Both the position numbers and the translations under genes were made by a program. A stretch of 64,000 nt of DNA from Bilabrum cf. latius. Its lineage: Eukaryota. Each line of letters starts with the position of its first letter. Position 1 is the first letter of the stretch. This document shows positions 13,845 through 56,937 of this stretch, one piece after another. A model generated the notes under the pieces. It was not told the origin of the DNA. It made no database searches and saw only the letters and a program-made list of their open reading frames with translations. The stretch spans positions 248,001 through 312,000 of the forward strand of contig OZ237756.1 of assembly GCA_965178125.1 (NCBI GenBank), read 5' to 3'.

Positions 13845-16800
13845 TCAGCCCATGCCCATAGACGCCAAGGACCTGCATACCTGTTCGGCTACCCTGGATG
13901 CGGGACCACGACCCGAGTCCCGGAGCCCCCTAAGGGGCACAAGCACACCTGCATCTACCACAGACTGCTTCAGGCCATCCTATCCAGCAGCGATATTCCG
14001 AAGCGCCCAGGCCGCCTGCTCTGCCTCCTCGCCCTTGCCCGACCCAAGCAGAGCCACCAGGCCGCCCAACGCACCTGCATCCACCACGGACTGCTTCAGA
14101 CCATCCGATCCAGCTGCGATATTTCGAAGCGACCTAGCCGCTTGCTCTGCTTCTTGACCTTTGCTCGATCCAAGCAGAGCCACCAGACCGCCCAACGCAC
14201 CTGCATCCACCACGGACTGCTTCAGGCCATCTGATCCAGCTGCAATATTCACAAGCGCCCTAGCCGCTTGCTCTGCTTCCTGGCCCTTGCCCGATCCAAG
14301 CAGAGCCACCAGACCGCCCAACGCACCTGCATCCACCACGGACTGCCGCAGGCCATCCGACCCAGCTGCGATATTCACAAGCGCCCTAGCCGCCATCTCT
14401 GCCTCCTGACTTGTGCCCGATCCAAGCAGAGCCACCAGACCAACCAACGCACCTGCATCCACCACGGACTGCTTCAGGCCATCTGATCCAGCTGCAATAT
14501 TCACAAGCGCCCTAGCCGCTTGCTCTGCCTCCTCGCTCTTGCCCGATCCAAGCAGAGCCATCAGACCGCCCAACGCACCTGCACCCACCAAGAACTGCCT
14601 CAGGCCATCCTATCCAGCTGCGATATTCCGAAGTGCCCAGGCCGCCATCTCTGCTTCCTGGCCCTTGCCCGATCCAAGCAGAGCCACCAGACCGCCCAAC
14701 GCTCCTGCACCCACCACGGACTGCCTCAGGTCATCCGATCCAGCTGCGATACTCCGAAGCGCCCTAGCCGCTTGCTCTGCTTCCTGACCCTTGCCCGATC
14801 CAAGCAGAGCCACCAGACCGCCCAACGCACCTGCATCCACCACGGACTGCCTCCGGCCATCCGATCCAGCTGCGATATTTACCAGCGCCATACTCGCCAT
14901 CTCTGCTTCCTGGCCCTTACCCGATCCAAGCAGAGCCACCAGGCCGCCCAACGCACCTGCATCCACCACGGACTGACACAGGCCATCCGATCCAGCTGCG
15001 ATATTCCGAAGTGCCCTAGTCGCTTGCTCTGCTTCCTGGCCCTTGTCCGATCCAAGCAGAGCCACCAGACTGCCCAACGCACCTGCATCCACAACGGCCT
15101 GCCTCCGGCAATCCGATCCAGCTGCGATATTCGCCAGCGCCATATTCGCCATCTCTGCTTCCTGACCCTTGTCTGATCCAAGCAGAGCCACCAGGCCGCC
15201 CAACGCACCTTCATACACCACGGATTGCCTCAGGCCATCTGATCCAACTGTGATGTTCACAAGCGCCCTAGTCGCTTGCTCTGCTTCTTGACCTTTGCTC
15301 GATCCAAGCAGAGCCACAAGACCAACTAACGCACCTGCATCCACCACGGACTGCCTCCGGCCATCCGATCCAGCTGCGATATTCACAAGCGCCCTAGCCG
15401 CTTGCTCTGCTTCCTGACCTTTGCCCGATCCAAGCAGAGCCGCCAGACCGCCCAACGCACCTGCATCCACCACGGACTGTCTCCGGCCATCCGATCCAGC
15501 TGCAATATTCTGAAGCGCCCAGGCCGCCTGCTCTGCTTCCTAACCTTTGCCCGATCCAAGCAGATCTACAAGGCCGCCCAACGCACCTGCATCCACCACG
15601 GCCTGCCTCAGGCCATCCGACCCAGCTGCGATATTCGCAAGCGCAATAGCCGCTTGCTCTGCCTCCTGGCCCTTGCCCGATCCAAGCAGAGCCACCAGAC
15701 CAACCAACGCACCTGCATCCACCACGGACTGACAAAGGCCATCCGATCCAGTTGCGATATTCCGAAGCACCCAGGCCGCTTGCTCTGCTTCCTGACCTTT
15801 GTCCGATCCAAGCAGAGCCACAAGACCAACCAACGCACCTGCATCCACCACGGACTGCCTCAGGTCATCCGACCCAGCTGCGATACTCCGAAGCGCCCAG
15901 GCCGCTTGCTCTGCTTCCTGGCCCTTGCCTGAACCAAGCAGAGCCACCAGACCGCCCAACGCACCTGCATCCACCACGGACTGCCTCCGGCCATCCGATC
16001 CAGCTGCGATATTCCGAAGTGCCCAGGCCGCCATCTCTGCTTCCTGGCCCTTGCCCGATCCAAGCAGAGCCACCAGACCGCCCAACGCACCTGCATCCAC
16101 CACGGACTGACGCAGGACATCGTATCCAGCTGCGATACTCCGAAGCGCCCTAGCCGCCATCTCTGCTTCCTGGCCCTTGTCTGAACCAAGCAGAGCCACA
16201 AGACCAACCAACGCACCTGCATCCACGACGGACTGCCTCCGGCCATCCGATCCAGCTGCAATATTTGCCAGCACCCAGCCCCCGTGCTCTGCTTCCTGGC
16301 CCTTTTCCGATCCAAGCAGAGCCACCAGACCAACCAACGCACCTGCATCCACCACGGACTGACACAGGCCATCCGATCCAGCTGCAATATTCCGAAGCGC
16401 CCTAGCCGCCATCTCGGCCTCCCGGCCCTTGCCCGATCCAAGCAGAGCCACCAGACCGCCCAACGCTCCTGCGACGATGAAAAGTGCCCGAAGCCTGTCG
16501 TTGTCATAACACAGTTGCCAAATTACGAACGCAGCTATTGCTGCTTCCACCTTCTCATTGGATCGAAGCCGACTCGCGAGTTTGGCTACTTCAGTTGGAC
16601 TAGACAGCACATGCTAAGCCAAGGCATCAACTGCATCGATCATCGACTGTTTTGTACTCGCTTGAAAATCGGCCATCGAGTCAATCCCTGATTCTATCCT
16701 CAGCTGCCACAGCACGCGATACAGCCCATCCCAGTCCCCCCTCCTCAGCAGCCCGTCCACAATCTCCCGCACCCTGGCAACTGCAGCCGCGCAATCCTCT

Positions 16801-18179
16801 CCCCCAGCGAGCAATGCAGGCAATAAGGATCGGATGTCTGCTGCAGCTGCAGGCGATACCCCAGATGCCGATTCCGACCGCAGCACATGCACCGCCTCCT
16901 ACACGCCCATCCTGTCTCCCGGACCAATGCACAGCAGGCCGCGCAGCATGTCCGCATACCAACCAGGCCGCTTCGACAGCACATCGTCGCCAGCCAACGG
17001 TACATCACATGTATGCAATTTAGCTGATAGCTCTCCAGGCCTGGTCCTGCTCCCGTCCTGCAGCTCACCAGGATACTAGTCCCCGAACGGGTGCTTCCCT
17101 CCCGTGGCCAGCTCGTGCAGCAGAACGCCCAACTCCCATGATGCCTGCTTCCCGAACGGCACGCATGCATCCATGTCTCCTGCCGCCCCCTTGTTCCACC
17201 CGTCCAGCACTTCAGGGGCCAGGTGGGCCTAGTTGCCGCCCAGCCCGTCACCGCCATCCTTCAGGTACCTGTACGTAACCCGATTCAGAGCTTCATCCAT
17301 TCCAGCACTAGTGGAAGCACCCGGGCCAGCTGATCGTGCGGAACCTTCGAGCACATGAACGCGTAGCGAGCACTCCAGATCGATCAGCACCGCACGACCC
17401 ACGCCCTCCGGACCCCCCTTCGAGTCCCACATCACGTTGTCCAGCTTCAGGTCACGGTGCACCACCCCGTGCTGCAGCAGGTGATGCACGCCCTCCGCGA
17501 TATCTCTGGACAGCTGCACAAGCACATCGTCAGACAGAGACCCCGGCTCATCTCCTTCCACGATCTCCAGATGGTCGCACATGCGTCTCTGCAGCAGCTC
17601 CAAGCCGACCATCTGCGCCTTGCGGGGCCGCAGGGGGGCGGCACCAGCAGAGGACATGCCCTCCCCGTCGACACCAGCAGCAATGCACACCAGGCTCGGA
17701 TCAGGCAGCATCTTCACCATCCACAGGGGAGGCTTGCACACGCACTCAAACAGCACGCGGGCCACGTTGCGGTGCTCGGGCAGGCGAGCGAGCACATCGA
17801 ACTCTTTCTGGGAATCGATGGTTTCGAGCTTGGATGTAGATAGACCCCAGTTGAATACAGTCTTCACCGCAATGTGATCAGGAGTAGCATCCAAACTAGG
17901 ATCACACGGGGCATCATCGGAATGGCCTGTTGGAAGAGCCACACGAAAGACGGCACCGAATCCGCCCTGTCCCAGCATGATACTTCCCTTCGTTGGCTTG
18001 CTGCATGCATCAAGCAGTGGTTTAGCAAATTGGCGCCTCTATACAGATGTGCCGGACTTTGTCATGAGGTACACCTCCATCACGGCGGAAGGAAGATCAG
18101 GTGCGAGAACGGCCTAAGCTGCATGGCTTTGCAAAGCCTCGCTGGCACCAGCGCCGCTGGCTGGACCAGAGGCTGACAT
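13845..18179 (-). CDS. Protein kinase fused to ~20 tandem armadillo repeats (~1444 aa with TAG=Gln, no intron needed)
   Basis: One frame from ATG 18179 to TGA 13845 with TAGs at 18114, 18039, 17229, 17076, 16899, 16614, 15540, 14610, 13980. Kinase motifs LGQGGFGAV, IAVK, HRDLKLDN, GGN[TAG]AHLAPEV, SWELGVLLHEL...HPF. The repeats are 42 aa: VVDAGALGGLVALLGSGKGQEAEQAAWALRNIAAGSDGLRQS. Confidence 0.88.
13930..16470 (-). repeat. 126-bp coding tandem repeat (ARM units), ~20 copies
   Basis: Near-identical 126-bp units visible directly in the DNA. Confidence 0.92.
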
Positions 18180-18433: not shown

Positions 18434-21400
18434 TCACTTACCCACCATGCCGGGCGGTGGCCTGGAGCCACGAGAGGCGAACCACGATGAACGTTCCCTC
18501 GCCATCCGCAGCACCCGCTCAGGCACCCCTGCCATCCCCGCCACCAGCAGACCGTAGCTCCTCACAGATGGCCCGCCCCGCACACGGTACAGGCACGTGA
18601 TGGTCTGCTACTCGCCGTGTGACGACTATCGCGCCATTTCCCCTGTGCTTGCGCTTGTACGAATGGCTACACCGCCATCTACTTCATCACCATCGCCCCC
18701 ATGCTCCTCATCCTCCGGCTCCTCTCGCAAGAATGCCATGTGCACGTTCGCGGCTATCGTGCCCCTGCTCCGGTCCTCCCCGTTGATCCGATCCACAGCC
18801 CCCCACACCTCAGGATAGTGCGTGATGAACAGACAGCAGCACCTCACCCGCACACTCAGATGCCGCAGAGCAGCCACAGCCACAGCCGCTCCATCCGCAG
18901 AGCTCGTGCCCCTCCCCAGCTCGTCCACCACCACCAGCGACCTCCCACCGGCCTCCCTAAGGATGCTCCCCGCCTGGCTGCTCTCCAGATAGAAAGTGCT
19001 CAGCCCCCCCTGAAGATCATCGCTGGCACCCATCCGCGTGTACACCGCATCAAACGGACCCACCACCGCGGACTCGGCAGGCACCCAGCTGCCCACCTGA
19101 GCCATCATGGCCATGAGGGCAGCTCCCTTGGCGTAGCAGCTCTTGCCGCCCATGTTGGGGCCCGTCAGGACCAGACTGCTGGCAGACATGGAAACGTCAC
19201 GAACGCTCCCATCGTCCCCACTGCCAGAATCATCGTCACCATCACCGCCACTTGACAACCCCATCGCGGCGCAGGCAGCGTCCATCGCCCTAACCGCACT
19301 AGTCACACCAGCCTCCCCGATACCACACCCCCGCAGCTCCGCCATTTCCGCCTCCCTATCACTCGAACGCCTCCCCAGGGCCACTGGATTCGGAATCACA
19401 TCCCCCCCAACACCCCCACCTCCACCTCCACCTCCACCCATACCCGACAGTCCCCCGTGGTGACCCGCACCAGCCAGAGCAGAGGCGCGGTACCTGCCCC
19501 CAGCCGCCTCCAGCAGCGGATGCCGCCCCATTGTGACCCAGAGACCCGAAGGCAAGCTAGTCGGCAGGACAATCGGCCTCACGTACCCGGGCAAGCGAGC
19601 CACTTTGCCCAGTGCTGCCAGCACGTCCAGCTCGCCCAGCACGCGCACCCACGCGAGCACGGCAGGCAGCAGATCCCCAGTCAGCTCTCTCACGAGCAGC
19701 CCCCACGCCCTTCTCGCGTGCACGGCAAGTCGCTCCTGCTGCAGTGCCCTCTAGCCCAGCAGGTCCACCACGTCAGGGGAATGGTACCTGACAGAGGCCT
19801 TGGTGGAGCTCACCAGCGACCAGTCCTCAGGCACCAGCCCTGCCGCTTTGCTGGACCGCCGCAGCTCCACCATGTGGGTCAGCGAAGAGGACACGCCCGT
19901 GCGGACGGTCTTCCACTCCAAGGCGGGCATCTTCAGGATGGATCTGGCCTGCTTCAACTCGGAGTCGAAACCCGCCTCAATCTGCGCCAGGGCCGCTCTG
20001 GCCTCCCCTGCCTCTGGGCACAGCCTGGCCTCCACCTCGGGCCTCAGAGCAGACCCTTGAGCTGAAGCAGCGCCTGTACCTCCATCGCGAGAGGCAGCTG
20101 CAGAGGCGCGCATGGAGGCAGCAGCGGCGGGGTTCCATTTCCTGAGGGCACCGGCCTGCCTCTGCTTCTTCTGGAACCATCCCGCACCAGCGGCTGCCTT
20201 GCCCTTCGAACCACCATTGCCCGATGCACTGCCGTGCGGTGCACCCGACAGCCGGGCCAGCAAGTCAGGGTGCAAAGAGTTCCTGACCGCAGCTATCTTG
20301 CCTGCAAGAGCGGGCAGCTGCTGCAGCTACGCCCGCAAGTGGGCAGGCAGCATCGGCCTTGTCGGTGACTAGCCATCATCGGCGGATGCAGATGATGCCG
20401 ATGCCGATGCCGAGGACTCGAATGCGTCACTGCCACCACCACTCCTGCCAACCTTATCCTCATCGTCATCAACACCAATAGCCGTTTGCCGGCTGCTCCC
20501 CCCTTGCCCCAGCCGCCAAGCAGCCCACGGAGCCTCCACTTTTCCAAGCGCTCCAATCAGCCGCAGCAAGGCGGGTGGATCGCAACCACCGCTCTTCAGC
20601 CGCCCCGCCAGCCGCTCCAGATCAACCATCCCGCGCATTGCACCGCACATCTCACCGAGAGGACTCGCCATCGGCTCAGCCGCCATTGCCGCCACACCGT
20701 CCTGCCTCTGCCTCAGCTGCACCGGGTCCTTCAGTGGGGCCATGATGGCCAGCCGAAGCCGCCTCAGCCCAAACGGGGTGCTGCACCGGTTGAGCAATCC
20801 CAGGAGAGACCCGTGTGACGAGCGAGTTGCCTTCCCCTGAAGCAGCTCGAGGTCGGCGGCAGTCTCGCCTGGCAGCAGTGCAGTGCAGTCTGCAGTGCTA
20901 CTGCTACCGGATGCTTTGTCAGGTGCAGCTGCCGATGCAGCTTTCTCCGATGAAGAGGAGCTTGCAGTTGCTGGTAGTGGACGACCGCCTTTCTCCGAGC
21001 TCTTCGCATTCTACCCCTCTCTTTCCATGTCTTGCTCGAAAGCAGCACTGTCTTCCGGGCTCGTCCCAGCGCCACTGGATACTTGCCCTGACCCGGCAAG
21101 GCCAAGCTCCAGGGGATGCACGCACCAATCTGCGGTGGCTTCGCTGCTGCTACTTGTGCCCGTGCCCTCTGCAGCGCTGCTTGAACTAGTAAATGTCCCG
21201 GCACTCGCAGATGCCCCCTCTGGCTGCATGGCTTGCACTGGCCCCAGAACCCTCGCCAGGGGATGCTGAGGCAGCCGGGCGAGGTGCCTGAGAGTTGCAA
21301 TTGTGGAGTGCCTTGCAGCCCATGGCAGGGCCACCATGGACCGAGCCAGCTTCGTCAATGGGGGACGTAGGGCCGGCGGTACATTGACCTCAGATGACAA

Positions 21401-23734
21401 AGACCCTGATGATGCCTGTAGATCTAGTGTCTTCCTCTGTGCACCTATCTACAGTGCGTTCGGATCGGTTGTGCTTGATCCCATTGTGCTACCTCCGGCG
21501 GCATTTGCAGTGATCCTTGCTCTCTTGCGGGATAGAATCCCGCCCTTGCTAGCTTGCCCCGACCGTGACCGTTTCTGGCCCGCACGAGCAGGGCTGGAGG
21601 ATGCAGCATCGTTTGAGGATAGTAACGTGATGCCACCAATATCGGAAGCACCCCCTGCTGGCGACCTGAGCGCAGGCGGCAGCATGCTCCACAGCTCCAG
21701 TAAGAGGCTGCCCAAGTCTGTCTCGCTCTGATCCTCATCCTCTTGGTCTTGCTCTTGTTCTTGCTCTTGCTGTAGATGTGTGGCACTATTCCGAGCCTTG
21801 GAAGATCGGATGTTGCCCTCACTCGCAACCGCACTAACGGGCCAATCGAACATGGAAGAGTGCAGCTCGTGCCCCACGCACCGCACGGTCCCTGCCATCC
21901 CCTGCTGCTCCAGACCACCATCAACCTGACCTGCCGACCCAGGGCCCGCCCCTACCTCTCCATCTCCCCCTTCACCCGCACCCGCACCTGTCCCGTCTCG
22001 CATCGCCCCAAACGCGACGTCTGCATCGTCGTTCTCATACCCCGCCCGCCCCCTCAGCTCCATCCCAGAGAGGCAGCACACCCTCACGCCGGCAGGAGCA
22101 GCCCCGGCTGCGTCACCCAGCGGCATGTCAAGCGTGCCCAGCCCCCCGCTGTTCTCTGCTGCTGTTCCCCCGCCCGCCTCGGCGAGGTGAGCTGCCACGG
22201 CTCGTGATGTGTGACGAGTGCACGCAGCTCCTTTGAATAGGCCTACTACCGGGGCACCTCTCCTACCGCCCTGCCCATTCGCCGAAGTTACCTCGCTTGC
22301 AGGCTGCACCCCCACCGCCCTAAATGCATCCAACGAGACAGTGCCGGCATGCAAGTCAGTCGACTGGGTCGACACTATATCTACCTCTGACGATTCATCG
22401 GACTGCGACGCCCGAACCAGCCCAGTGGCTCCTGCAGGCTGCAGCCCCGCCCCCGCCTGCACCAGCACCTCAGCCGGCTGCATCCTGCTCAGCGCGCTCC
22501 TTAGCCTAGACCTAGAGCCATCGTCCTCGAAGGCGGTAGCGAGTATGAGGCCCGACACCATGTCCACACTCGTCACACCGATATAGCCGGGCTCCGCCTC
22601 CGCCACCACGACGAGCGGCCCGTCCACCTCTGGCTCCAACACATCAGTGCCAATGTCCATGCCTGCCTGTTCCCCGCTATTGCGAGCAATCTCAGTCTCG
22701 TCAGCAAACGAAGACTACACTGCGACCGAACTGCTGGAGCTGGCACTGTTGCTGCTACTGCTGCTGCTGCTGCTGCTGGCATTGCTGGAGCTGGCACTGC
22801 TGCTTGCATTGACTCCTGTTGCGGCTCCGCCTCGGGGCCCCCCCAGACCGGCGGCGGCATCCGATTCGAGCCAGGGAACAAGCGTGCTAGGGGTAAGAAC
22901 CGCCGCAACACCCCTGAGAAAGGGACCCCCCCTGTTGTTCCCCGAGGCTTTGATGGCCGCCGTCTCCGACTACCGGACCAGGCCCACCCGCAGACCAGAG
23001 GCCACAAGTCGCGCAGCGTGTCGGGCCGCCGTGAAGACCGGAACGCTCGCGGTCACAAAGGAGAGGTCAGAGGGCTTGTAGCACCATATGCCCAGCCTGC
23101 GGGCAGCAACCACCGCGCCCGGCCCGAAGAACCGAAACTTGTACCCCGTCTCGACCATGAGCACGAGTCCGGGCCACTGAGCCTACACCGCTGCGACTTG
23201 TTGCTCCCAGGGGGTGAGGCGAGGCGGCCGCTCGAGTGAAGCCGTAGACGCGCCTGGCCTGGATCTGATGCGGCCCGTCACGCCGACCGCTCCTTCGGGC
23301 AGGTCAGTGGGATTGCCGTCCATGAAGGCGAGCACGGCGTCAGAGCGAGGCCGCTGGGCCGACGCGTCAGCAGGTGATGGCCTCGATAAAGGAAGCAAGG
23401 CATGTTTCAGCATCTCGCGGATCTTTGCGTGGTCTATCTCTCGTTTTGTGGCTTGCTCAGCTCGATTGGCTCCTGCCGCGTTCAAGTCATCAACCATGCC
23501 GCCGGCATCCCGATCAGAACCTGAATCGGATACGAGGTCCTCCACATCGTCTACGTCTACTGCGGCCAACCTTTTTGCTGCCTTCTCCTTGGCGGTATCA
23601 CTGCTATGCTTGGTGGATGCAGCTTCCGGTTGCACCTTACGAGCTTGTGCAGCGCGCTTTGCTTTTGCTAGCACCGTTGACGTATCGATAGACGCTGTTC
23701 CCCCAAAGAATGAACTCAAAGAAGACTATTTCAT
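18434..23734 (-). CDS. MSH3: DNA mismatch repair protein MSH3 (MutS family), ~1766 aa with TAG=Gln
   Basis: One frame from ATG 23734 to TGA 18434 with at least 11 TAGs. N-terminal PIP box MK[Q]SSLSSFF; MSH3-type domain I TPWEQQV...LMVETGYKFRFFG...VGLVR[Q]SETAA; TPFGLRRLR; Walker A TGPNMGGKS; Walker B DELGRGTS; FITHY; C-terminal LYRV...SYGLLVAGMAGVP. Confidence 0.9.
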
Positions 23735-24604
23735 GATTCTGTTATCATAGCGTATGCAGTGGCCCTTCTTATTAGACCAGATCTACTCCGCAAAGTCTAG
23801 GCTATGCAGTGCCGTGCAGCAGCGCGGTCGAGGCACGTCATTCATCACTTAACACTTAGCTTTCATGGAGTGCACTGGATTACAATGGTCAGACACGGTG
23901 GGACCTCCTGCTCGCATGATGTCGCACGCGCCGGCATACCTTGCTGGTTTGGAAGCAACCACGCTCCACGGGTGGACCCCGCCCGGGGCATGGGCATCGG
24001 CAGGGAGCGGCATTGAGGTCGATGTCTCCCAAGCTCCAGCGAATCCTACACGAGTCAGTAGTGAACGATCCACAGAATGGCAGGCTGCGAAGGAAGCAGC
24101 CGGGTGACTGGTAGAGGTCTCCGGGGTGCCCGGAGGCGAAGCATCCGATCGATGGAGGTATCGAATTGGGGGGTCCGCCGGGGCTGTGAGGGTTATCTGC
24201 TCAGAGATGGGGGCGGTACGCGGCTTCCAATGATGCTTTCCAGCGCTAGCCCCCTCCAACCAGGCTAGTGTCTTGCAATTCCGCGGAAGACCGGTGCGAG
24301 ACCACTGCCGACATGGGGTGCAGAAGGCGATGGATCGACTATTGCGGAGGGCAGTCGTGGAGCCAAGGGAGCCCGCCGGCGCTCAGTGGCAGAGATCCAA
24401 GGCTACCCGGTTATGGAGGGACGGTTCGGTGCGGTCGAGTCTGCAAATAGTATTTTGGAAGGTCAAAGCTGCACAGGCTCGTTTGGATGCATTTCATTCA
24501 AGATGCCCCCAAGTCGGCTCACCAGACCAACGGCTCCAGCGAAGAAAACCTGTCCCGACTTTTGCACTGCCTCCAGTCGCCCAAGATCCAGGCGACGGAT
24601 TGAC

Positions 24605-27600
24605 TCACACCGCGACTGCTAGCGCATTGCCCAGGCCTCCCTCCGTTGCTGCGGCCGACTTCTCAGCAGGGCGCATACCCTGCTTCTTCGGTTCCGTGCG
24701 GGCCTTGGACTGCTTGCCGCAACAGAACCAGTACACGACGCACGAGACGATCGCCACAAGGACGATGACGCCCACCAGAATAAAGATCCATGCCGGAGTG
24801 CCGTCTGATTCCCCATCCTCAACGTAGGGTGACGCCACCACTGCAGCGCCGTCGGTGCTTCCAGCCCACGATGCCTCGGCCCCAGGCGCTCCCGTGGTCA
24901 GCTGCGTCAGGGCCGTCTGATTCTGCAGTGATAGTTCCATCCGCTCGAGGAATTCGGTCGCCTGCGTCTCTGATTGCACGGGCACCTGGAGCACGAGCGT
25001 GGTGCTACCCTCTTCTGCCGACTCCAGCCAGTACGACGTAGACTCCGGGTCAACCCCGATGCTGGCAAGCGCAGCCACGACAAAGGCCTCGGCGCTGCTG
25101 CAGCCGATGTCGGTGAATGCCGCCCCTTCGATCTGCACGGAGGCCTCGAGTAGCAACGGAGTCGGTGACCCGCCCGTGCTCCCCCCAGCGCCGTTCGAAC
25201 ACACGACCCCATCGTCGGTCTCCTCCTCTACTGCTGCGGGGGGCGGCCTCTTGCCGCGACGACGACGAGTGGGAGTGCTCGCCTGGCTGCTGCTGCTCGG
25301 GGAGGCCGTAGATGGGCTCGGGGCAGAGCTCACGGATGATGATTGCGATGATCTGCTGGGACTGCTGGTGATGCTCGGCGTGGGCGAGGTGCTGGGACTG
25401 CTGGTGATGCTCGGCGTGGGCGAGGTGCTGGGACTGCTTGTGATGCTCGGCGTGGGCGAGGTGCTGGGACTGCTGGTGATGCTCGGCGTGGGCGAGGTGC
25501 TGGGACTGCTGGTGATGCTCGGCGTGGGCGAGGTGCTGGGACTGCTTGTGATGCTCGGCGTGGGCGAGGTGCTGGGACTGCTGGTGATGCTCGGCGTGGG
25601 CGAGGTGCTGGGACTGACCGACGGTGACGGGCTTGGGGTGGGCGAGGGCGTGGTGCTTGCTTCCACGATGCTGAAGAAAGCCAGCTCGAGCCCTGCCACC
25701 GGTACCTCGGCCAGAGCCACCACACCGGGCACGTCGTCCCAACGAGGCACAACGGCATCGACCACTCCGTCCTCGACCACGATGTCCCCGAGGGTGTAGG
25801 CCTCCGCACCTGCATCGGTGGACGTCATGCAGGCAATCTGCGTGCCGTTGGACCCGCCAGCCGCACCGGGATTGACGAAGCATGACGTGTCGTTCCACCC
25901 TCCTGCGTGCACCAGGCCTGATATGGCGCCATCTCCCGTGTGGCTGTTCCCCAGGCTCTCGCTGCCCACCACAGTACTGAGTTCCGGATTCTGCACATTC
26001 CCCATGACGATGGATGTTCCGGCATTTCCGTCCAGCCGGGCGACGGCTGCGAAATGCGAGCGCGACGATCCGACGGTCCCGATCGTGTACTCAAAGAGAT
26101 TCCCCGCTTCCTCCGTCTCAGCGAAGACTTGAAACGGGATTCCGGCAAACACTGCCTCGGCGTTGAAATATGACAGCTTGTTGGATCCGTCTACGGCGGT
26201 GAGCACGAATGCACTGTTGCCCATTCCGTCCTGCAGCACAGTGAGTCGCTCGAAGCTCCCCTGGGACGTCTCCTCCTGGCATGCAGGCTCGCCGGAATCC
26301 CTGTTTACGTTGCAAACAGAGTAGCGGTCGTCTCCAGACGCGTCAAACTACAGCACGAAGTAGTCGGCAGCACCCCCGGGCACATCCAGCCTCGCCCGCA
26401 CCACGTCGCCATCACCGAGACGTGGCGTGGCCGTTGTGTTCACCTGGTACCTCTGGGCGGCAGCGGTTGCATTCGACCCGTCCAGCACCATTACCTCCGC
26501 GTTCTGGTCGTCATTGAGCGCTGCAAACACGCACCACCGGTCGGCTACCACGCCCACCAGGCTAGCCTGCGCATCCACGCCGACGGATGCCGGGTTGGGC
26601 TCCACCGTCTGCCAGGCGTCCGCCCCTTGACGGTTCAAGTTGAACACGTACGGCTGGAATTCGGCGCCCTGCACCTTCATTACACCGCAGACAGATGACG
26701 CACTCTGCAGGGAGACGGCGTGTCCCCGGCGCGCCTCCAACCGCGTGAAGGGCAACTCATTGAGGTCCGTTACAGGATCAAACGGCTTGGTGGTTGCATT
26801 GCCCATGTAGAAGAGGGCCTGGCTCGTGTGCATGATAAGGACGCCGCCGTCCCCCCCCAGGATGAACATGTCCTGCGTGGAAGTGCGTTTAGGATTTGTT
26901 AAGTACTCGAGGGCGTCCCTGGGGTCTTCTGCTAGGTCCCAGATGGACACATCGAACTCCCGCGAGCCGTTGAAGGCGCACCGCACGTCGTTTTGCGCGA
27001 AGACGGTAAACGACGAGAAGAATCCTCCGATGATTGCGCACCGTCCAGACCCTATCGCAGGATGGATCGGGAAGGAGTACTTGAGGTTTAGTTCAGAGTC
27101 CTTGGTCTCTTGATTCAGCTCGATGATGTCAAGGGACCCCGTTTGCATCATCCCGCCTGCAGGATTCATCCGCGGGACAGTGGCGACTGCCAGCTCTTTG
27201 CCCCACACCCCGGATGGCTCCACGGCTAGGAGAACCTTATTGTTACCAATGCATTTGCGCACAAGCACAGGGTGCACCTGCAGGTCGGGGCTGTAGCCTC
27301 CGGCCAGCTGGAGCTGTACCGCGTCACCTTGGTCGCCGTTCCAGTAGTAGGCCTGCGTGCTGGTCAACGCGACCACGGCCTCTCTGTTCCCTGGACCAGA
27401 GTCCTCCCCGAGGGCATACAGATTCTTCCAGCTCTGGCCCGCCGACCCGGCAATGACAGTGACATCCACCGCGGATGAGTTGGTGACATCCAGGAGGACC
27501 AGGGAGCCGTCGGCCCCCGACTACGTGGAGCGGGCGAACACTATCTCGCTGCCAGACACGGTCGCGCCCTGCATGTTGTGCGCCAGTCGCTGAATCTCAG

Positions 27601-28849
27601 AGGCGTTGATCTCGTGCGATGTGGCAGTGTTCATGTCCAGCACGAAGTATCGGTACAGAATAGGGCCTCCGCTCTCCTGCACCCTGACCTCCTCGATCGG
27701 GTTGCCGTTTGGACCCTGCATGGGGCTGTTGAATCCGAGCACTGTGAGCCCGCCGCTGGGGACGAACTGCGGCAGGGCAGACTTCGTCAAGGCAGTCATG
27801 TTGAATATCTCCCTCGAGTCACCGACTACGGTGTACACGGCGTTGGCGGCCGCGGAAGCCGTGGCTCTTCTCTGGTTGTTCGTGGACGTCGACATGACCC
27901 AGCCGTCGGCGCTGAAGGAGTAGCACGCAATCCTGCGCAGTACATCGAGGCTGTAGCATACGAAATCACCTGCTGACCACGTGTCGGCCACACCAGCTCT
28001 ATTGATGGAGTCGCCCGAGCCGGGGTTGAGGTCTGCGCCCCCCAAAGCAGAGACCTTGCCGTAGGTCGTGATGTCGTTCGGGTCCCGCATGTCCACGAAG
28101 GCGGGCTCTTTCCCGCTCCCGACGTCAAACGTCATGAACGCCCGCCCGTCCTTTGCGTAGGCCAAGCTCGAATACAGTCCAGTCGAGATGGATGCGTACA
28201 CGTCTTCGATATACTTGATCTGGCTGCCACTCGGCAGTCTGAAATCAAGGCAGGCCATCTGGTAGTCCGCGCCGTCGTTCGCTTTGTTGACTACGCAAAT
28301 CACGTCGTCTGAAAGCCACGCGCCCAGGAACTCCAGCGGAAAGGGGGGCTCCTGCGGATCGAACGGGTGCGTCCCTGGAGGCGCACTTGGGAAGCTGCCT
28401 TCCCCCATCGTGTTCTGGCCGACAACATGCACCTGGTACGGAGTCTCCGTCACGTTCACGATGATCCACTCGATCTTACCGTCGATAAAGGCGCTGGTTG
28501 AAAGGAGGTTCCCGTCTGGTGACAGATACTGGAACGCATCCCGCTGATTGTTCCAGTACCCGCTTTGCGGCCCCGGCGCGAACTCGATAGGAACCACACT
28601 CACGTTCCCGGCCGCCTCGCATGATGCAGAATACAACTCATACCCAATTTCGCGCCCGCCATATGCCTGAAGAGTGGCGCCAGAAGGGCTTGCTCTGAAT
28701 AGGCGCGGCTATCCGCCTCGCCGGTTGGGGTTGGTATCCGTGACCTCCACGCTCAACAAGCGGCCTGAAGTAGGCGTAGCCCCCAGATTATTACCATTGG
28801 CTATACTAGCAGCGATTAAAGCCGACAGAGCAGCGAAAATCGTGTGCAT
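24605..28849 (-). CDS. Single-pass cell-surface protein, copy A (signal peptide, large beta-rich ectodomain, Ser/Thr/Pro stalk, TM helix), ~1414 aa
   Basis: ORFs 28709-28900, 27521-28636, 26348-27469 and 24605-26239 are in one frame joined at TAG. Signal MHTIFAALSALIAASIANG; 7x ITSSPSTSPTPS; TM WIFILVGVIVLVAIVSCVVYWFCC; ends TGA. Confidence 0.82.
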
Positions 28850-29041
28850 ATGTCCTCCAAATGCTTGTGCACCTGGCGACTCCAGGCCAGCCGGTGGCAA
28901 CTGATTCCGGTTTGATTGTGGGAGTAAGGTGCTGATTTTGGCTCCAAAACAAGGTCGGGAAATAAATCACCGGATACTTACCAAAGTTCTACCCACCATC
29001 CATAACCTGCCAACAAAAAAGCTCTCCGTGCACCCTATGCT

Positions 29042-29721
29042 CTCCACCGCAGCGCTCTCCTGTCCCTCCCCACAGACTCCACCGCAGCGCCCTCCTGCCC
29101 CTCCCCACAGACTCCACCGCAGCGCCCTCCTGTCCCTCTCCACAGCCTACACCGCAGCGCCCTCATGTCCCTCCCTACAAACTCCACCGCAGCGCCCTCC
29201 TGTCCCTCCCCACAGACTCCACCGCAGCGCCCTCCTGTCCCTCCCCACAGCCTCCACCGCAGCGCCCTCATGTCCCTCCCCACAGACTCCACCGCAGCGC
29301 CCTCCTGTCCCTCCCCACAGACTCCACCGCAGCGCCCTCCTGTCCCTCCCCACAGACTCCACCGCAGCGCCCTCCTGTCCCTCCCCACAGACTCCACCGC
29401 AGCGCCCTCCTGTCCCTCCCCACAGCCTCCACCGCAGCGCCCTCCTGTCCCTCCCCACAGACTCCACCGCAGCGCCCTCCTGTCCCTCCCAACAGACTCC
29501 ACCGCAGCGCCCTCCTGTCCCTCCCCACAGACTCCACCGCAGCGCCCTCCTGTCCCTCCCCACAGACTCCACCGCAGCGCCCTCCTGTCCCTCCCCACAG
29601 ACTCCACCACAGCGCCCTCCTGTCCCTCCCCACAGACTCCACCACAGCGCCCTCCTGTCCCTCCCCACAGCCTCCACCGCAGCGCCCTCCTGTCCCTCCC
29701 CACAGCCTACACCGCAGCGCC
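29042..29721. repeat. 35-bp minisatellite, ~19 copies
   Basis: Unit ctccaccgcagcgccctcctgtccctccccacaga. Confidence 0.95.
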
Positions 29722-30232
29722 GTCATTCATGTGTACTCCCTGAGGTCCTTGTGTGGACCACGGACAGGGTCAGGTCTCGGTGGCCATGCAGGGCCGAAGC
29801 CGATGCATCCGCTTCCGCACTGCGCAGCCCCACCCTCAGTGGCCCTGTTCCCTGCGCCGTATCGACGAGGTGCTGCAGGGACACGAGGGTATGGCGCAGT
29901 ATCGATTTGACCACTGGTTGTTCAGCGCGACCTGGGGCTAAGGCAAGAGTGAGGTGGGAGGCCGGGTCTGAATCTGAACCTAGGGCAAGAGTGATGAGGT
30001 AGGGCTGAGCGCCTTGGCCCCAAGGGTTGGCTGTTTCCATACGGGGCGCGCTATTGGAGCCTATATTGATGCCGAGCCGTCGATTATCGTGGCGACCGGA
30101 GTCATTGGTACAGCTGCTGGCGAAGACGGAGGTGGACAGGGTGCTGATGAGCCCACCCCAAACGGGATCGTAAATAACACAAGATTCCCTGGCCCTCCGG
30201 CCCTTTCGCCCTATCAGCCCTTTACATGGTCC

Positions 30233-30419
30233 ACGTCTACTGCGGCCAACCTTTTGCTGCCTTCCCCTTGGCGGTATCACTGCTACTAGTAGGATTGGTG
30301 GATGCAGCTTCCGGTTGCACCTTACGAGCTTGTGCAGCGCGCTTTGCTTTTGCTAGCACCGTTGACGTATCGATAGACGCTGTTCCCCCAAAGAATGAAC
30401 TCAAAGAAGACTATTTCAT
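30233..30419 (-). pseudogene. Truncated copy of MSH3 5' end
   Basis: ATG AAA TAG TCT TCT TTG AGT TCA TTC TTT... matches 23734 onward, then has indels and joins unrelated sequence. Confidence 0.75.
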
Positions 30420-31282
30420 GATTCTGTTATCATAGCGTATGCAGTGGCCCTTCTTGTTAGCTAGACCAGATCTACTCCGCAAAGTCTAGGCTATGCAGTG
30501 CCGTGCAGCAGCGCGGTCGAGGCACGGCGTAACGTCACTTAGCTTTCGTGGAGTGCACAGGATTACAATGGCCAGACACAGTGGGACCTCTTGCTCGCAT
30601 GATATCGCACGCGGCGGCAGACCTTGCTGGTTTGGAAGCAATCGCGCTCCACGGGTGGACCCCGCCGGGGGCATGGGCATCGGCAGGGAGCGGCATTGAG
30701 GTCGATGTCTCCCAAGCTCCAGCGAATCCTACACGAGTCAGTAGTGAACGATCCACAGAATGGCAGGCTGCGAAGGAAGCAGCCGGGTGACTGGTGGAGG
30801 TCTCCGGGGTGCCCGGAGGCGAAGCATCCGATCGGTGGATGGATCGAATCGGTGGATCCGCTGTGGCTGTGAGGATTTTCTGCTCGGAGATGGGCGTGGC
30901 ACGCGGCCTCCAATGAGGCTTACCAGCGATAGCCCCCTCCAACCAGGCTAGTGTCTTGCGATCCTACGGAAGTTCGGCGCGAGACCACTGCCGACATGGG
31001 GTGCAGAAGGCGATGGATCGATTATTGCGGATGGGAGGCGTGGGGCCAAGGGGGCCCGCCGGCGCTCAGCGGCGGAGATCCATGGCTGCCTGGATGGAGG
31101 GACGGTTCGGTGCGGTCGACTCTGCAAATAGTATTTTGGAAGGTCAAAGCTGCACAGGCTCGTTTGGATGCATTTCATTCAAGATGCCCCCAAGTCGGCT
31201 CACCAGACCAACGGCTCCAGCGAACAAAACCTGTCCCGACTTTGGCACTGCTTCCAGTCCGAAATCCAGGTGACGGATTCAC

Positions 31283-34200
31283 TCACACTGCGACAGCTAG
31301 CGTGTTGCCCATGCCTCCCTCCGTTGCAGCGGTCGACTTCTCAGCAGGGCGCTTACCATGCTTGTCTGGTTCCGTGCGGGCCTTGGACTGCTTCCCGCAA
31401 CAGAACCAGTACACGACGCACGAGACGATCGCCACAAGGACGATGACGCCCACCAGAATAAAGATCCATGCCGGAGTGCCGTCTGATTCCCCATCCTCAA
31501 CGTAGGGTGACGCCACCACTGCAGCTCCGTCGGTGCTTCCAGCCCACGATGCCTCGGCCCCAGGCGCTCCCGTGGTCAGCTGCGTCAGGGCCGTCTGATT
31601 CTGCAGTGATAGTTCCATCCGCTCGAGGAATTCGGTCGCCTGCGTCTCTGATTGCACGGGCACCTGGAGCACGAGCGTGGTGCTGTCCTCTTCTGCCGAC
31701 TCCAGCCAGTACGACGTAGACTCCGGGTCAACCCCGATGCTGGCAAGCGCAGCCACGACAAAGGCCTCGGCGCTGCTGCAGCCGATGTCGGTGAATGCCG
31801 CCCCTTCGATCTGCACGGAGGCCTCGAGCAGCAGTCGAGACGGTGACCCGCCCGTGCTCCCCCCAGCGCCATTCGAGCACAGGACCCCATCATCAGTCTC
31901 CTCTTCTACTGCTGCGGGAGGCGGCCTCTTGCCGCGACGACGACGAGTGGGAGTGCTGGCCTGGCTGCTGCTGCTCGGGGAGGCCGTAGATGGGCTCGGG
32001 GCAGAGCTCACGGATGATGATTGCGATGATCTGCTGGGACTGCTGGTGATGCTCGGCGTGGGCGAGGTGCTGGGACTGCTGGTGATGCTCGGCGTGGGCG
32101 AGGTGCTGGGACTGCTGGTGATGCTCGGCGTGGGCGAGGTGCTGGGACTGCTGGTGATGCTCGGCGTGGGCGATGGACTAGCACTGACCGACGGCGACGG
32201 GCTTGGGGTGGGCGAGGGCGTGGTGCTTGCTTCCACGATGCTGAAGAAAGCCAGCTCGAGCCCCAACACTGGTACCTCGGCCAGAGCCACCACACCGGGC
32301 TCGCCGTCCCAACGAGGTACAATGGTATCGACCACTCCATCCTCGACCACGATGTCCCCGAGGGTGTAGGCCTCCGCACCTGCATCAGTGATTGCCATGC
32401 AGGCAATCTGCGTGCCGTTGGACCCGCCAGCCGCACCGGGATTGACGAAGCATGACGTGTCGTTCCACCCTCCTGCGTGCACCAGGCCTGATATGGCGAC
32501 ATCTCCCGTGTGGTTGTTCCCCAGGCTCACACTGCCCACCACAGCACTGAGTTCCGGATTCTGCACATTCCCCATGACAAGGGATGTTCCGGCATTTCCG
32601 TCCAGCCGGGCGACGGCTGCGAAATGCGAGCGCGACGATCCGACGGTCCCGATCGTGTACTCAAAGAGATTCCCCGCTTCCTCCGTCTCAGCGAAGACCT
32701 GGAACGGGTTTCCGGCAAACACTGCCTCGGCGCTGAAATACGACAGCTTGTTGGATCCGTCTACAACGGTGAGCACGAATGCACTGTTGCCCATTCCGTC
32801 CTGCAGCACAGCGAGTCGCTCGAAGCTCCCCTGGGACGTCTCCTCCTGGCATGCAGGCTCGCCGGAATCCCTGTTTACGTTGCAAACAGAGTAGCGGTCG
32901 TCTCCTGACGCGTCAAACTACAGCACGAAGTAGTCGGCAGCACCCCCGGGCACATCCAGCCTTGCCCGCACCACGTCGCCATCACCGAGACGTGGCGTGG
33001 CCGTTGTGTTCACCTGGTACCTCTGGGCGGCAGCGGTTGCATTCGACCCGTCCAGCACCATTACCTCCGCGTTCTGGTCGTCATTGAGCGCTGCAAACAC
33101 GCACCACCGGTCGGCTACCACGCCCACCAGGCTAGCCTGCGCATCCACGCCGACGGATGCCGGGTTGGGCTCCACCGTCTGCCAGGCGTCCGCCCCTTGA
33201 CGGTTCAAGTTGAACACGTACGGCTGGAATTCGGCGCCCTGCACCTTCATTACACCGCAGACAGATGACGCACTCTGCAGGGAGACGGCGTGTCCCCGGC
33301 GCGCCTCCAACCGCGTGAAGGGCAACTCATTGAGGTCCGTTACAGGATCAAACGGCTTGGTGGTTGCATTGCCCATGTAGAAGTAGGCCCGGTTCGGGTG
33401 CATGATGAGGACGCCGCCGTCCCCGCCCAGGATGAACATGTCCTGCGTGTAAATGCGCGCAGGATTGCCGATGTACCCACGGGCGTCCCTGGGGTCTTCT
33501 GCTAGGTCCCAGATGGACACATCGAACTCACGCGAGCCGTTGAAGGCGCACCGCACGTCGTCTTGCTCGAAGACGGGATACGATGGGAGAAATCTTCCGA
33601 TGATTGCGCACCGTCCAGACCCTATCGCAGGATGGATCGGGAAGGAGTACTCGAGGTTTAGTTCAGAGTCCTTGGTCTCTTGATTCAGCTCGATGATTTC
33701 AAGGGACCCCGTTTGCATCATCCCGCCTGCAGGATTCATCCGCGGGACAGTGGCGACTGCCAGCTCTTTGCCCCACACCCCGGATGGCTCCACGGCTAGG
33801 AGAACCTTATTGTTACCAGTGCATCCGTGCATAAGAACAGGGACCACCATCATGTCGGGGCTGTAGCCCCCAGCCAGCTGGAGCTGTACCGCGTCGCCTT
33901 GGTCGCCGTTCCAGTAGTAGGCCTGCGCGTAGGTAATAGCGACCACGGCCTCTCTGTTCCCTGGACCAGAGCCCTCCCCGAGGGCATATAGACTCATCCA
34001 GGTCTGGCCCGCCGACCCGGCAATGACAGTGACATCCACCGCGGATGAGTTGGTGAGATCCAGGAGGACCAGGGAGCCGTCGGCCCCCGACTACGTGGAG
34101 CGTGGGTACACTATTTCGGTGTCAGACACGGTCGCGCCCTTCTTGTTGTGCGCCAGTCGCTGAATCTCAGAGGCATTGATCTCGTGCGAAATGCCAGTGT

Positions 34201-35419
34201 TCATGTCCAGCACGGCGTATCGGTACACAACGGGGCCTCCGCTCTCCTCCCGCACCCTGACCTCCTCGATCGGGTTGCCGGTGGGTCCGAATCGGGGGGA
34301 AGTGTACCCGAGCACTGTGGGCTCGCCGCTGGGGACGAACTGCGGCGGCGTTGACTTCGTCAATGAGGTCATGTTGAATATCTCCCTCGAGTCACCGACC
34401 ACGGTGTACACGGCGTTGGCGGCCGCGGAAGCCGTGGCTGCTCTCGAGCCAAACGACGTCGACATGACCCAGCCGTCGGCGCTGAAGGAGTAGCACGCTA
34501 TCTTGGCCTATCTAGAGAGGCTGTAGCATACGAAATCACCTGCTGACCACGCAGTGGTCACACCAGCGTTCTATGTGGAGTCGGCCGGGCCGGGGTTGAG
34601 GTCGGCGCCCCCCAAAGCGAAGACCTTGCCGTAGGTCGTGTTGTCGTTCGGGTCCCGCATGTCCACATAGGCGGGCTCTTTCCCGCTCCCGACGTCAAAC
34701 GTTATGCATGCCCGCCCGTCCTTTGCGTAGCCAAAGCTCGAGAACAGACCATCCGGGGTGGGTCCGTACACGTCGTCGATATACTTGATCTGGCTGCCAC
34801 TCGGCAATCTGAAATCAAGGCAGGCCATCTGGTAGTCCGCGCCGTCATTAGCCTTGTTGACTACGCATATCACGTCGTCTGAAAGCCACGAGCCCCGGAA
34901 CTCCAGCAGAGAGGGGGGCTCCTGCGGATCGAACGGGTGCGTCCCTGGAGGCGCACTTGGGAAGCTGCCTTCCCCCATCGTGTTCTGGCCGACAACATGC
35001 ACCCGGTACGGAGTCTCCGTCACGTTCACGATGATCCACTCGATCTTACCGTCGATAAAGGCGCTGGTTGAAAGGAGGTTCCCGTCTGGTGACAGAAACT
35101 GGTACGCATCCCGCTGATTGTTCCAGTACCCGCTTTGCGGCCCCGGCGCGAACTCGATAGGAACCACACTCACGTTCCCGGCCGCCTCGCATGATGCAGA
35201 ATACAACTCATACCCAATTTCGCGCCCGCCATATGCCTGAAGAGTGGCGCCAGAAGGGCTGGCTCTGAATAGGCGCGGCTATCCGCCTCGCCGGTTGGGG
35301 TTGGTATCCGTGACCTCCACGCTCAATAAGCGGCCTGAAGTAGGCGTAGCCCCCAGATTATTACCATTGGCTATACTAGCAGTGATAAAAGCCGACAGAG
35401 CAGCGAAAATCGTGTACAT
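31283..35419 (-). CDS. Single-pass cell-surface protein, copy B
   Basis: Paralogue of 24605-28849 in one frame with TAGs at 35279, 34571, 34508, 34091, 32918; 4x ITSSPSTSPTPS; same TM; ends TGA. Confidence 0.82.
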
Positions 35420-54800: not shown

Positions 54801-56325
54801 CGTGTGCTCCAACAAATGCGTCTTGGTGCAGGTGCTGCAGCCCGGGTGCCTAGATACGTACTCGCTAGGACGACATCGAGCCTTCGAAGAGACCCGCCCC
54901 TCCATCCTACATGCTCGATGGCAGCGCGATGGACGTCAGGCCCGTCAGCCCACGCAGCGCACCAGCCTCAAGACTCGACACCTGCGTCATGGACAGGTCC
55001 AGCGACTGCAGGCCGGATGGACCCGATCCGTCCTGGCCCGATGTGAACGCGTCTGGCTCGATGGTGCTGATACTCGGGGGCAGACTGATCTCTACGAGTG
55101 TTCCATTGTCAGTTCCCAGACTGTGCTGCGTGATTGCAGTCAGGTCGGTGCACCTTGAAAGGTCGATGGAACGCAGCCTCGGGGCACCGCTAGCAAAATT
55201 CGCAGGCAGCTCATTAAGCCCAGCCGGCAGGACGATAGTGCTTAGTTGCTCCCAACCAGCTAGGACTGGCACCTCCGGTGCAGCAGGCCAGGGCGCGTCG
55301 ATCTAAGCGCCCGACAAGTCTAGGGTAGTGACATCAACATCTGGCAAGATTGTATCCAACCTTACAGATGGTGGGCGGCACATAACGGAAGCACTCCACG
55401 CCTGTACGCTCGATGGAGGGCTAGACTAGGACGAAGAGTCAGACCCAAAGCAGTGCATCTTGCCAGTGCCTGCCTCGATCCCGCACGTGTGCTCATCGCC
55501 CGCAGACACGGCGACCCACGCCTGCACGCTCGATGGAGGGCTAGACTAGGACTAAGAGTCAGACCCGAAGCAGTGCATCTTGCCAGTGCCTGCCTCGATG
55601 CCACACGTGTGCTATCCACCGGCAGATACAGCGGCCCACGCCTGCACGCTTGATGGAGGGCTAGACTTTTGGGGGTGCTAGTCATCCCCGAAGCAGTGCA
55701 TCTTGCGTGTGCCTGCTTCGATCCCACACGTATGATATGGGCCCGCAGACACGGCAGACCATGCCTGTACGCTCGATGGAGGGCTAGACTAGGACTACAT
55801 ATTGGACCCAAAGCAGTGCATATTACCGGTACCTGCCTCGATGCCGCACGTGTGTGAATAGCCCGCCGACACGGCAGACCACTCCTACACGCTCGATGGA
55901 GGACTGGACTAAACGAAGGACCCGAAACAGTGCATCTTGCCGGTGCCTGCCTCGATCCCGCACGTGTGCGATCCGCCCGCAGACACGGCAGACCATGCCT
56001 GCACGCTCGATGGAGGGCTAGACTAGGACGAAGAGTCGTCTCCGAAGCAGTGCAGCTTCCTAGTGTCAGCCTCGATGCCGCACGTGTGTGAATAGCCCGC
56101 AGACACTGCAGACCATGCCAGCACGCTCGATGGAGGGCTAGACTAGGACCAAGTGTCTCCGCCGAAGCAGTGCATATTACCGGTGCCTGCCTCGATGCCA
56201 CACGTGTGCGAGGTTCCTGCCATTTCAAGCAAGGTACGTTCGTGGTAATCCTTGCACCAGTCGTTTCCCATTGAGCGGTCAACAGCAAGAAGTGCTGCAA
56301 CCAGAAATGGAGTATGCAATCGCAT
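51808..56325 (-). CDS. Membrane receptor-like protein copy A: signal peptide, ~7 RCC1/BLIP-II-like repeats, LRRs, Cys-rich (TNFR/GCC-like) repeats, multi-TM C-terminal region (~1505 aa)
   Basis: One frame from ATG 56325 to TGA 51808 broken only by TAGs. Repeats WSAVSAGxxHTCGIEAGTGKMHCFG; LRR LQSLDLSMTQVSSL, VDLSGNGF, LNL[TAG]NNPIE; CxxCPxGTY repeats; hydrophobic helices. Confidence 0.82.
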
Positions 56326-56937
56326 TGGTTTTAAGGGAAGACACTGCTACGGCACAAGTATGTAAATAGGAGTGAATTGTGTACGGAGAGAGACCGACTC
56401 TCTTGCAGTCGTGATACACTGGCAGTTGGGTGATATCCCGGTGGGTGATATCCCGGTGGGTGATACTTCCCCAAGGCAACCCAGTGGGTAATAGTATTCC
56501 GGCCCGCCGGGAAGGGTCAGCTGTTCGTTCAGCGAATATTTGTGATTGCACGCACTTACTCAATCCCCCATTGGATCAATGCAAATGCGATCGTGTTCCC
56601 ACTAACTTGCTCTTTCCAGGCAGCAAAGCGGTTTTTGAAAAAGCCCATTATTATTTTTAGAAAGACATAAGTGGCTTCGTTCTGGGGGCAGAAGCAGTCT
56701 GAATCGGGCTCGCACGGTGCCGCAAGCGGCAAGTCCCGACATTATCAACAGGACCAAGCCCCACCACAGCCACATGGGACAGTGCTGATCACGCCCAGCA
56801 TGCATGATGCGTCGTAAATCATCCAAGGAACGGGCCTCACTCGCGGAGTCGCTTCAGAGTTGTCGCTCGAATCAATTGGCTCCACGAGAGGTGAAGCACC
56901 TGCTCGCGGTGAAAAGCCGGTCGACGACTGCAGCGGC

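Follow-up and report, generated by a model that had tools for sequence, protein, structure and literature searches.

In the nuclear genome to which this DNA belongs, UAG is most probably read as glutamine, with UGA as the main and UAA as a minor stop codon. This corresponds to the assignment of NCBI table 15, and the probability of the reading, as it stands on the sequence evidence, is put at about 0.93. The window, that is, the whole 64,000-nucleotide stretch that was analysed (G000:C22:248001-312000), belongs to a 48.6 Mb assembly of 111 contigs, some of them megabase-sized. Its MSH3 gene carries UAG at two positions where glutamine is expected; nevertheless, it is the genome-wide evidence, together with a tRNA bearing a CUA anticodon, rather than MSH3 alone, that settles the glutamine reading.

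On the minus strand, a single frame runs from 23734 to 18434 (5301 nt) with 11 TAG, no TAA and no TGA before its TGA end, and the remaining five frames over the same DNA hold 11-48 TGA apiece. The gene and its parts are as follows.

18434..23734, minus strand: MSH3 gene, a single 1766-codon frame that contains 11 TAG and ends in TGA (frame reading, Pfam, structure match)
18434..18436, minus strand: TGA stop of MSH3 (frame reading)
22877..23215, minus strand: MutS domain I, residues 174-286, with two TAG inside (PF01624)
18803..19171, minus strand: MutS domain V ATPase core, residues 1522-1644, with nine TAG upstream (PF00488)
23783..23845, minus strand: in-frame ATG (23845) and TAG (23785-23783) upstream of MSH3, a possible longer start (frame reading)
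23705..23728, minus strand: PIP box X-S-S-L-S-S-F-F, residues 3-10, with TAG 23728-23726 at the Gln position (Q in 45 of the 49 motif-bearing full-length homologues)
23183..23185, minus strand: TAG at residue 184, in a Lys-dominated column, with Q in the 89%-identical relative P0124 (alignment)
22970..22972, minus strand: TAG at residue 255, the invariant Gln of MSH3 domain I (Q in 150/150; human VVKQTETAA)
18608..22717, minus strand: eight other in-frame TAG (22715, 21449, 21011, 20369, 20327, 19751, 18626, 18608) in variable or inserted regions

The PIP box is followed by MutS domains I, II, III and V, and the protein is closest to MSH3. The Pfam matches to MutS_I, III and V exceed their cut-offs, that to MutS_II stays under its own, and human MSH3 is the best solved-structure match (E 4.7e-86). 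Long low-complexity inserts separate the MutS domains and make up the ~650 residues by which this protein (1766) surpasses most of its homologues (~1100). They give no sign of a new function.

It had been claimed from the letters alone that TAG at codon 3 (23726-28) gives M-K-X-SSLSSFF and that TAG at 22970 gives RVGLVR-X-SETAAIKA, the X being glutamine in both. The minus strand confirms both spellings, as it runs ATG AAA TAG TCT TCT TTG AGT TCA TTC TTT from 23734 and GTC CGG TAG TCG GAG ACG around 22972-22970, the latter within the protein R-V-G-L-V-R-X-S-E-T-A-A-I-K-A. In the orthologue alignment, residue 255 faces Q in all 150 homologues (148 of the best 150 plus two from a separate search, with P0124 left out and P0003 counted once), which agrees with the predicted conserved Gln of domain I. 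At codon 3, BLAST aligned two homologues, both with Q. The motif x..[LIMV]..FF was found within the first 120 residues of 49 of the 72 full-length MSH3 homologues, and Q occupies x in 45 of these 49, in keeping with the proposed glutamine of the PIP box. A third TAG lies between these two sites (23185-23183, residue 184) and had not been mentioned; its column is K113/R19/Q8/W3/L2 of 145. The eight remaining TAG are in poorly aligned or variable columns and are uninformative on the residue, while the Pfam MutS_I score separates the candidates poorly on its own (64.3 bits with Q put at TAG, 63.2 with K, 60.5 with E). The sequence-only reading was thus correct in that both columns it named are Gln columns, but its heading, by which MSH3 motifs fix the amino acid, is overstated: just one of the 11 TAG is in a directly aligned invariant column, the PIP site comes from a motif count, and residue 184 belongs to a Lys column. 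What MSH3 contributes by itself is a single decisive column plus a motif.

The Logan protein P0124 is identical to MSH3 residues 6-254 at 221 of 249 positions and has Q at residue 184. It starts shortly past codon 3 and stops right ahead of residue 255; it would appear to come from a relative with the same two TAG, whose gene was cut by standard-code gene calling. The start downstream of 23726, against which the sequence-only reading had warned, is unlikely because the next in-frame ATG after codon 1 is residue 80, yet residues 6-80 are conserved in P0124 (65/75 identical). A longer start at the upstream ATG (23845) in place of 23734 is possible. Contigs of runs X1 and X3 are identical to the window over all 11 MSH3 TAG; as these runs may be source data of the assembly, their agreement argues only against consensus error.

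Counts across the genome gave the following. The in-frame stops within 148 kinase Pfam matches were 85 TAG, 2 TAA and 3 TGA (116 of 413 candidates scored, stops counted by hand), and those within 28 dynein AAA_6 matches were 20 TAG, with neither TAA nor TGA. Pooled, the 176 domain matches contain 105 TAG against 2 TAA and 3 TGA. A 374 kb sample, composed of stretches of contigs C2, C6 and C19 plus the window, yields 53 non-overlapping frames of at least 600 codons when TAG is read as sense, compared with 7 under the standard code; a sense reading of TAA gives 9, and one of TGA gives 28. All 53 contain TAG, which makes up 15% of their Gln codons (413/2754), and they end in TGA (44) or TAA (9). 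UAA and UGA are kept as stops, since TAA ends eRF1 and two dyneins, and the frames of eRF1, PRP8 and MSH3 end in TGA or TAA.

Other codes were tried and rejected. TAA or TGA as a sense codon did not yield such a set of long non-overlapping frames. The UAR = Gln code (table 6) fails as TAA ends genes and a TAA-sense reading adds almost nothing.

The identity of the amino acid was examined in depth at conserved columns of dyneins, MSH3 and eRF1. All 19 dynein heavy-chain loci found (86,440 codons, with 358 TAG, 543 CAA and 3196 CAG) were aligned to the best 120 of 2360 homologues; the profile was drawn from one subfamily, so that distant paralogues add noise. Columns with at least 40 homologues hold 192 TAG, and those at least 70% conserved hold 70. 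Among the latter, Q is the conserved residue for 36 of the 70 TAG (51%), E for 13 and any other residue for at most 2. The corresponding values are 393 Q (46%) and 84 E of 848 for CAG, and 51 Q (44%) and 15 E of 117 for CAA. The Gln share of TAG does not differ from that of CAG (p=0.46), and on average the columns of TAG, CAA and CAG have almost the same profile. Control codons behaved as follows: TGG faces W in 87%, TTG L in 74%, TAT Y in 65% and GAG E in 66%. The summed log-likelihood ratio for TAG was -14 for Q, -236 for E, -238 for A and -249 for K, and the candidates Tyr, Leu, Lys, Ser, Trp and Glu were rejected, being at least 220 log-likelihood units under Gln in dyneins. As a point against this pattern, the one TAG in a conserved block of PRP8 presumably adjoins, and does not coincide with, a Gln of human PRP8.

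Dynein heavy chains are largely intron-free, and TAG use varies about tenfold among the paralogues, from 3 to 49 per 3300 codons; in PRP8 it is low, at 4 in 2791. This spread and the low PRP8 count suggest that TAG is avoided in highly expressed genes.

A tRNA gene with the anticodon CTA is present in a single copy at G000:C23:907607-907679 on the minus strand. It forms a perfect cloverleaf and scores 69.8 bits, the second best of 48 tRNA matches (63 of 780 candidates scored), and pattern searches gave neither a second CTA tRNA nor any TTA tRNA. Its ARAGORN label, Pyl, rests on the anticodon only. A pyrrolysine system was rejected, because TAG is a general Gln-column codon and the tRNA has C1-G72, where tRNA-Pyl has G1-C72 (PMC9976931).

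The CUA tRNA was compared with 31 other distinct nuclear tRNA genes, a set that lacks His, Asp, Leu and Glu(TTC). Its identity over 57 fixed positions is 39 with Tyr, 34 with Gln(CTG) and 32 with Gln(TTG). The whole-molecule likeness to tRNA-Tyr lacks significance, as 14 of 441 unrelated tRNA pairs attain 39/57 and 6 of 441 attain 14/21 stem pairs. Within the acceptor stem and the anticodon stem, a subset picked after looking, 10 of 12 pairs equal those of Tyr, and the best of the 441 unrelated pairs has 8. Its acceptor stem departs from that of Tyr at pair 2:71 and base 73 only. The D stem and G73 match Gln(TTG), this type of D stem being common to Glu, Trp and Arg tRNAs. Of the determinants in Table 1 of Giege and Eriani 2023 (PMC9976931), the CUA tRNA has C1-G72 and U35 from the eukaryotic Tyr set and lacks A73 and G34; the molecule has the bacterial Gln elements G73, G2-C71, G10, U35 and A37 and is without U1-A72, G3-C70, G36 and U38. 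In the consulted part of that source, the table gives no eukaryotic Gln determinant set. The resemblance of the stems to tRNA-Tyr over tRNA-Gln is a lead only. Bacterial amber tRNA-Tyr mutants with G73 probably accept Gln.

Many tRNAs of this genome are divergent. The nuclear Gln tRNAs, TTG and CTG, are very dissimilar, with the discriminators G73 and U73 (L012, L043, L044), and a CAT tRNA (L114) also has C1-G72.

It is conceivable, though improbable, that UAG is a sense codon of ambiguous meaning, read for the most part as Gln and in a small share of cases as Glu or Tyr, owing to mixed identity elements of the CUA tRNA. The Glu columns speak for such a share, with 13/70 for TAG against 84/848 for CAG (p=0.04), and one dynein column, E in 119/120 homologues, holds TAG in three paralogues; the tRNA, for its part, retains the Tyr determinants C1-G72 and U35 and a D arm of the type found in Glu, Gln, Trp and Arg tRNAs. 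Yet the Glu share of CAA is similar (15/117; p=0.30 against TAG), and GAG is a single substitution away from TAG, so that recent Glu-to-Gln changes would yield an excess, and this one-step change would explain the difference from CAG. Moreover, Tyr and Leu columns receive 1/70 each of the TAG, and the tRNA is without the A73 and G34 required for Tyr. Glutamine as the one meaning of UAG is the reading preferred here.

In Condylostoma and Blastocrithidia, stop codons are context-dependent. A comparable arrangement, in which UAG would be Gln within genes and a stop near mRNA ends, is judged very improbable for the present genome. As the definition of a frame included read-through of TAG, an occasional TAG end may have escaped, and 6 of the 18 dynein ends are without a homologue comparison. 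Nonetheless, in the 53 frames from four contigs, TAG is neither enriched nor depleted toward gene ends: per 1000 codons, it occurs 7.6 times in the last 10, 6.6 in codons 11-30, 7.0 in codons 31-100 and 6.7 in the body, which is neither an excess nor a deficit over the last 10, 30 or 100 codons. All 12 evaluable dynein C-termini (of 18) end in TGA (10) or TAA (2) at most five residues from the end of their homologues, no TAG occurs in these 12 tails, and eRF1, PRP8 and MSH3 also close with TGA or TAA.

It is hardly credible that the ribosome uses the standard code and that TAG is fixed on the RNA, whether by U-to-C editing to CAG or by small introns that skip it. None of the runs examined is on record as RNA, and transcripts were not seen for certain. 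However, a dedicated CUA tRNA is present, alignments pass through TAG ungapped, and TAG behaves as a third Gln codon with a 15% share. Pieces of runs X6 and X7, guessed to be RNA, have no letters other than the genomic ones at TAG sites, and the gaps in the cover of these runs are uninformative.

That MSH3 is a pseudogene or a product of assembly errors, with TAG still a stop, is next to impossible: its protein is indeed swollen by low-complexity inserts, but the same pattern recurs in all 19 dynein loci, the kinases, PRP8 and the sole eRF1, the breaks are almost never TAA or TGA, the X1 and X3 contigs concur at every TAG, and the genome-wide counts refute it unless the assembly is wrong at thousands of sites, which upholds the earlier view that a stop in this otherwise intact 5.3-kb gene is implausible.

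The genome has a single eRF1 besides Pelota (G000:C35:455550-457423), with four exons, a TAA end and two TAG. The TAG at residue 44 faces Q in 116/118 homologues. The other corresponds to human residue 69, where 117/118 top matches have L and the eRF1 of Zostera has Q; against this Leu column, it appears as a counter-example to the Gln-column pattern. The protein keeps Thr32, Glu55 and Ser70, and its GTS motif is intact. None of the 110-118 top matches that align there has G29A, N30D or S60V. Departures at conserved columns number 12/85 in the N domain and 9/116 in the rest (p=0.17), an excess that is not significant; the changes may have a role in dropping UAG.

The proposed mechanism would then be as follows. 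The candidate CUA tRNA would be charged with Gln and decode UAG only, and the single eRF1, altered beside its GTS and TASNIKS motifs, would no longer compete at this codon. MSH3 would count as a normal, undamaged gene in which both the PIP box and domain I depend on UAG being Gln.

As for the organism itself, in a dynein tree the gene branches as sister to a group of Cafeteria and a single JGI sequence, with an SH-aLRT of 100 (28 of 121 sequences, one gene, quick mode, SH-aLRT without bootstrap). The best dynein match is Cafeteria roenbergensis at 57%, other named stramenopiles reaching 45-48%, and the best full-length MSH3 match is also Cafeteria, at 58% in domain I. These sequences place the organism as a probable Cafeteria-related bicosoecid stramenopile. 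The mitochondrial contig (G000:C111, L057-L060; 38.4 kb, 21-27% GC) has in-frame TGA for Trp, along with several TGG, and a TCA tRNA; mitochondrial TGA = Trp is shared with Cafeteria (PMC6972860). The genomes of Cafeteria roenbergensis/burkhardae are 34-36 Mb with ~70% GC (Hackl et al. 2020, PMC6972860), whereas the present one is 48.6 Mb with ~60% GC in the window. In the consulted part of that paper, a non-standard code is named for the mitochondrion only.

On C12 lies the main 18S array, divergent and only 1700 nt long; another 18S rRNA gene, unlike it, sits on a 17.9 kb contig with low-complexity flanks (L001, G000:C95:6099-7900) and is presumably dinoflagellate-like. The runs that hold the MSH3 region bear four different organism labels, which fits an organism living as a passenger in other cultures. 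Relatives in JGI metagenomes were sought by tRNA pattern and by MSH3; neither way gave any, the MSH3 search bringing up one 26% match.

UAG = Gln with UAA as a stop is an already known code, and the present organism is apparently an independent case in a new lineage. In Iotanema spirale (Fornicata), UAG is Gln, and UAA and UGA are stops (Panek et al. 2017, PMC5304391). That lineage is unrelated, and its primary stop is UAA, while TGA is the main one here (44/53). Its eRF1 carries T32G, in contrast to the retained Thr32 and GTS of the present protein, with its G29A, N30D, S60V and TAG at 69; the work on Iotanema was transcriptome-based (PMC5304391), and here a candidate tRNA gene is in hand. 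The phyllopharyngean ciliates Hartmannula sinica and Trochilia petrani likewise use UAG = Gln only, table 15 (McGowan et al. 2024, PMC11687900). The Gln share at conserved columns is 58% and 70% in these two, compared with 51% here under a one-family profile. UAA is their main stop, unlike the TGA of this ~60% GC genome, and by the consulted text no suppressor tRNA was found in their incomplete assemblies (PMC11687900), whereas a CUA tRNA is present here.

Other lineages also uncouple UAG from UAA, with different amino acids. UAG is Leu in the rhizarian exLh and in TARA ciliate MAGs, and in Oligohymenophorea PL0344 UAG is Glu and UAA is Lys (PMC10553269). The eRF1 of exLh has L69A, and residue 69 is changed here too. 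The suppressor tRNAs of these ciliates are closest to the tRNAs of the new amino acid, but the closest one here is Tyr, not Gln. What sets the present case apart from those known, as far as the consulted sources go, is thus its lineage, ~60% GC, TGA as the main stop, the kept Thr32 and a tRNA that is not obviously Gln-derived.

A search of full-text literature, with most subscription journals and supplements outside its scope, gave no nuclear reassignment in a stramenopile. In the consulted part of a 2024 stramenopile review, the genetic code comes up only in a reference on mitochondria (PMC11412368). It is a tentative and rather doubtful proposal that no earlier case of a changed nuclear code exists among stramenopiles and that the amber tRNA arose from tRNA-Tyr (GUA to CUA), its identity being switched to Gln via A73 to G73, 2:71 to G-C and a Gln-type D arm. 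If true, a codon reassignment would go back to a natural switch of tRNA identity, and this in a genome where low-GC mobile elements with polymerase B already use TAG as their principal Gln codon.

Codes that split UAG from UAA are, in the sources consulted, known from a handful of lineages, for the most part through transcriptome data or incomplete assemblies. No decoding tRNA was found in the UAG = Gln cases compared; here there is a candidate, and the one eRF1 retains Thr32, the position held responsible in Iotanema. How eRF1 drops UAG alone and where the tRNA came from thus become directly testable questions. Stramenopiles would join the list with a GC-rich, TGA-stopping genome unlike the UAA-stopping ciliates. 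Standard annotation would fragment most genes of this lineage, P0124 being such a fragment, and relatives may hide in public data. Any virus or virophage that infects such a host has to conform to the host's code.

Low-GC elements (0.30-0.37) with a protein-primed DNA polymerase B domain (PF03175) have 28 matches in the genome, 11 of them over the cut-off. We assume that they are Polinton- or virophage-like. One frame of 1189+ codons has 24 TAG, compared with 13 CAA and 3 CAG, and the elements appear to use the host code. A homologue in IMG/VR (L150; 42% identity) has no TAG; among the 21 aligned TAG, 6 face Q, more than any other residue. No solved structure matched the element. These elements and, separately, genes of the window that carry in-frame TAG are listed below.

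L147:865-4431, minus strand, equal to G000:C12 ~912313-915879: polymerase-B element, also L148 and L149 (PF03175)
13845..18179, minus strand: neighbour of MSH3 with a kinase-like N-terminus, 42-residue repeats and 9 TAG (frame and repeat alignment)
24605..35419, minus strand: two tandem paralogues, 24605-28849 and 31283-35419, with 3 and 5 TAG, three of them shared (frame comparison)
51808..63998: inverted paralogue pair, 51808-56325 (minus strand) and 60450-63998 (plus strand), with 19 and 9 TAG, seven of them shared (frame comparison)

In the neighbour of MSH3, 20 armadillo-like repeats of 42 residues, almost identical to one another, come after a kinase-like domain, and according to the reads the genome has many related copies at other places. 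In its repeat columns, one TAG falls in a CAG14/CAA2/GAG2/CCC1 column and two in a Ser column. Between the paralogues of the window pairs, TAG is exchanged with many codons (CAG 2, TTG 2, others 1 each), which is uninformative. The inverted pair encodes predicted surface proteins, 89% identical, that combine 40-residue repeats with leucine-rich and cysteine-rich regions. The variable positions of these repeats are uncommonly rich in TAG (19 in 1505 codons). The Met(CAT) tRNA occurs in several near-identical copies on different contigs (L024, L038, L042, L049-L051). Their AT-rich flanks are conserved, some adjoin further tRNA-like stretches, and they may represent a small repeated element.
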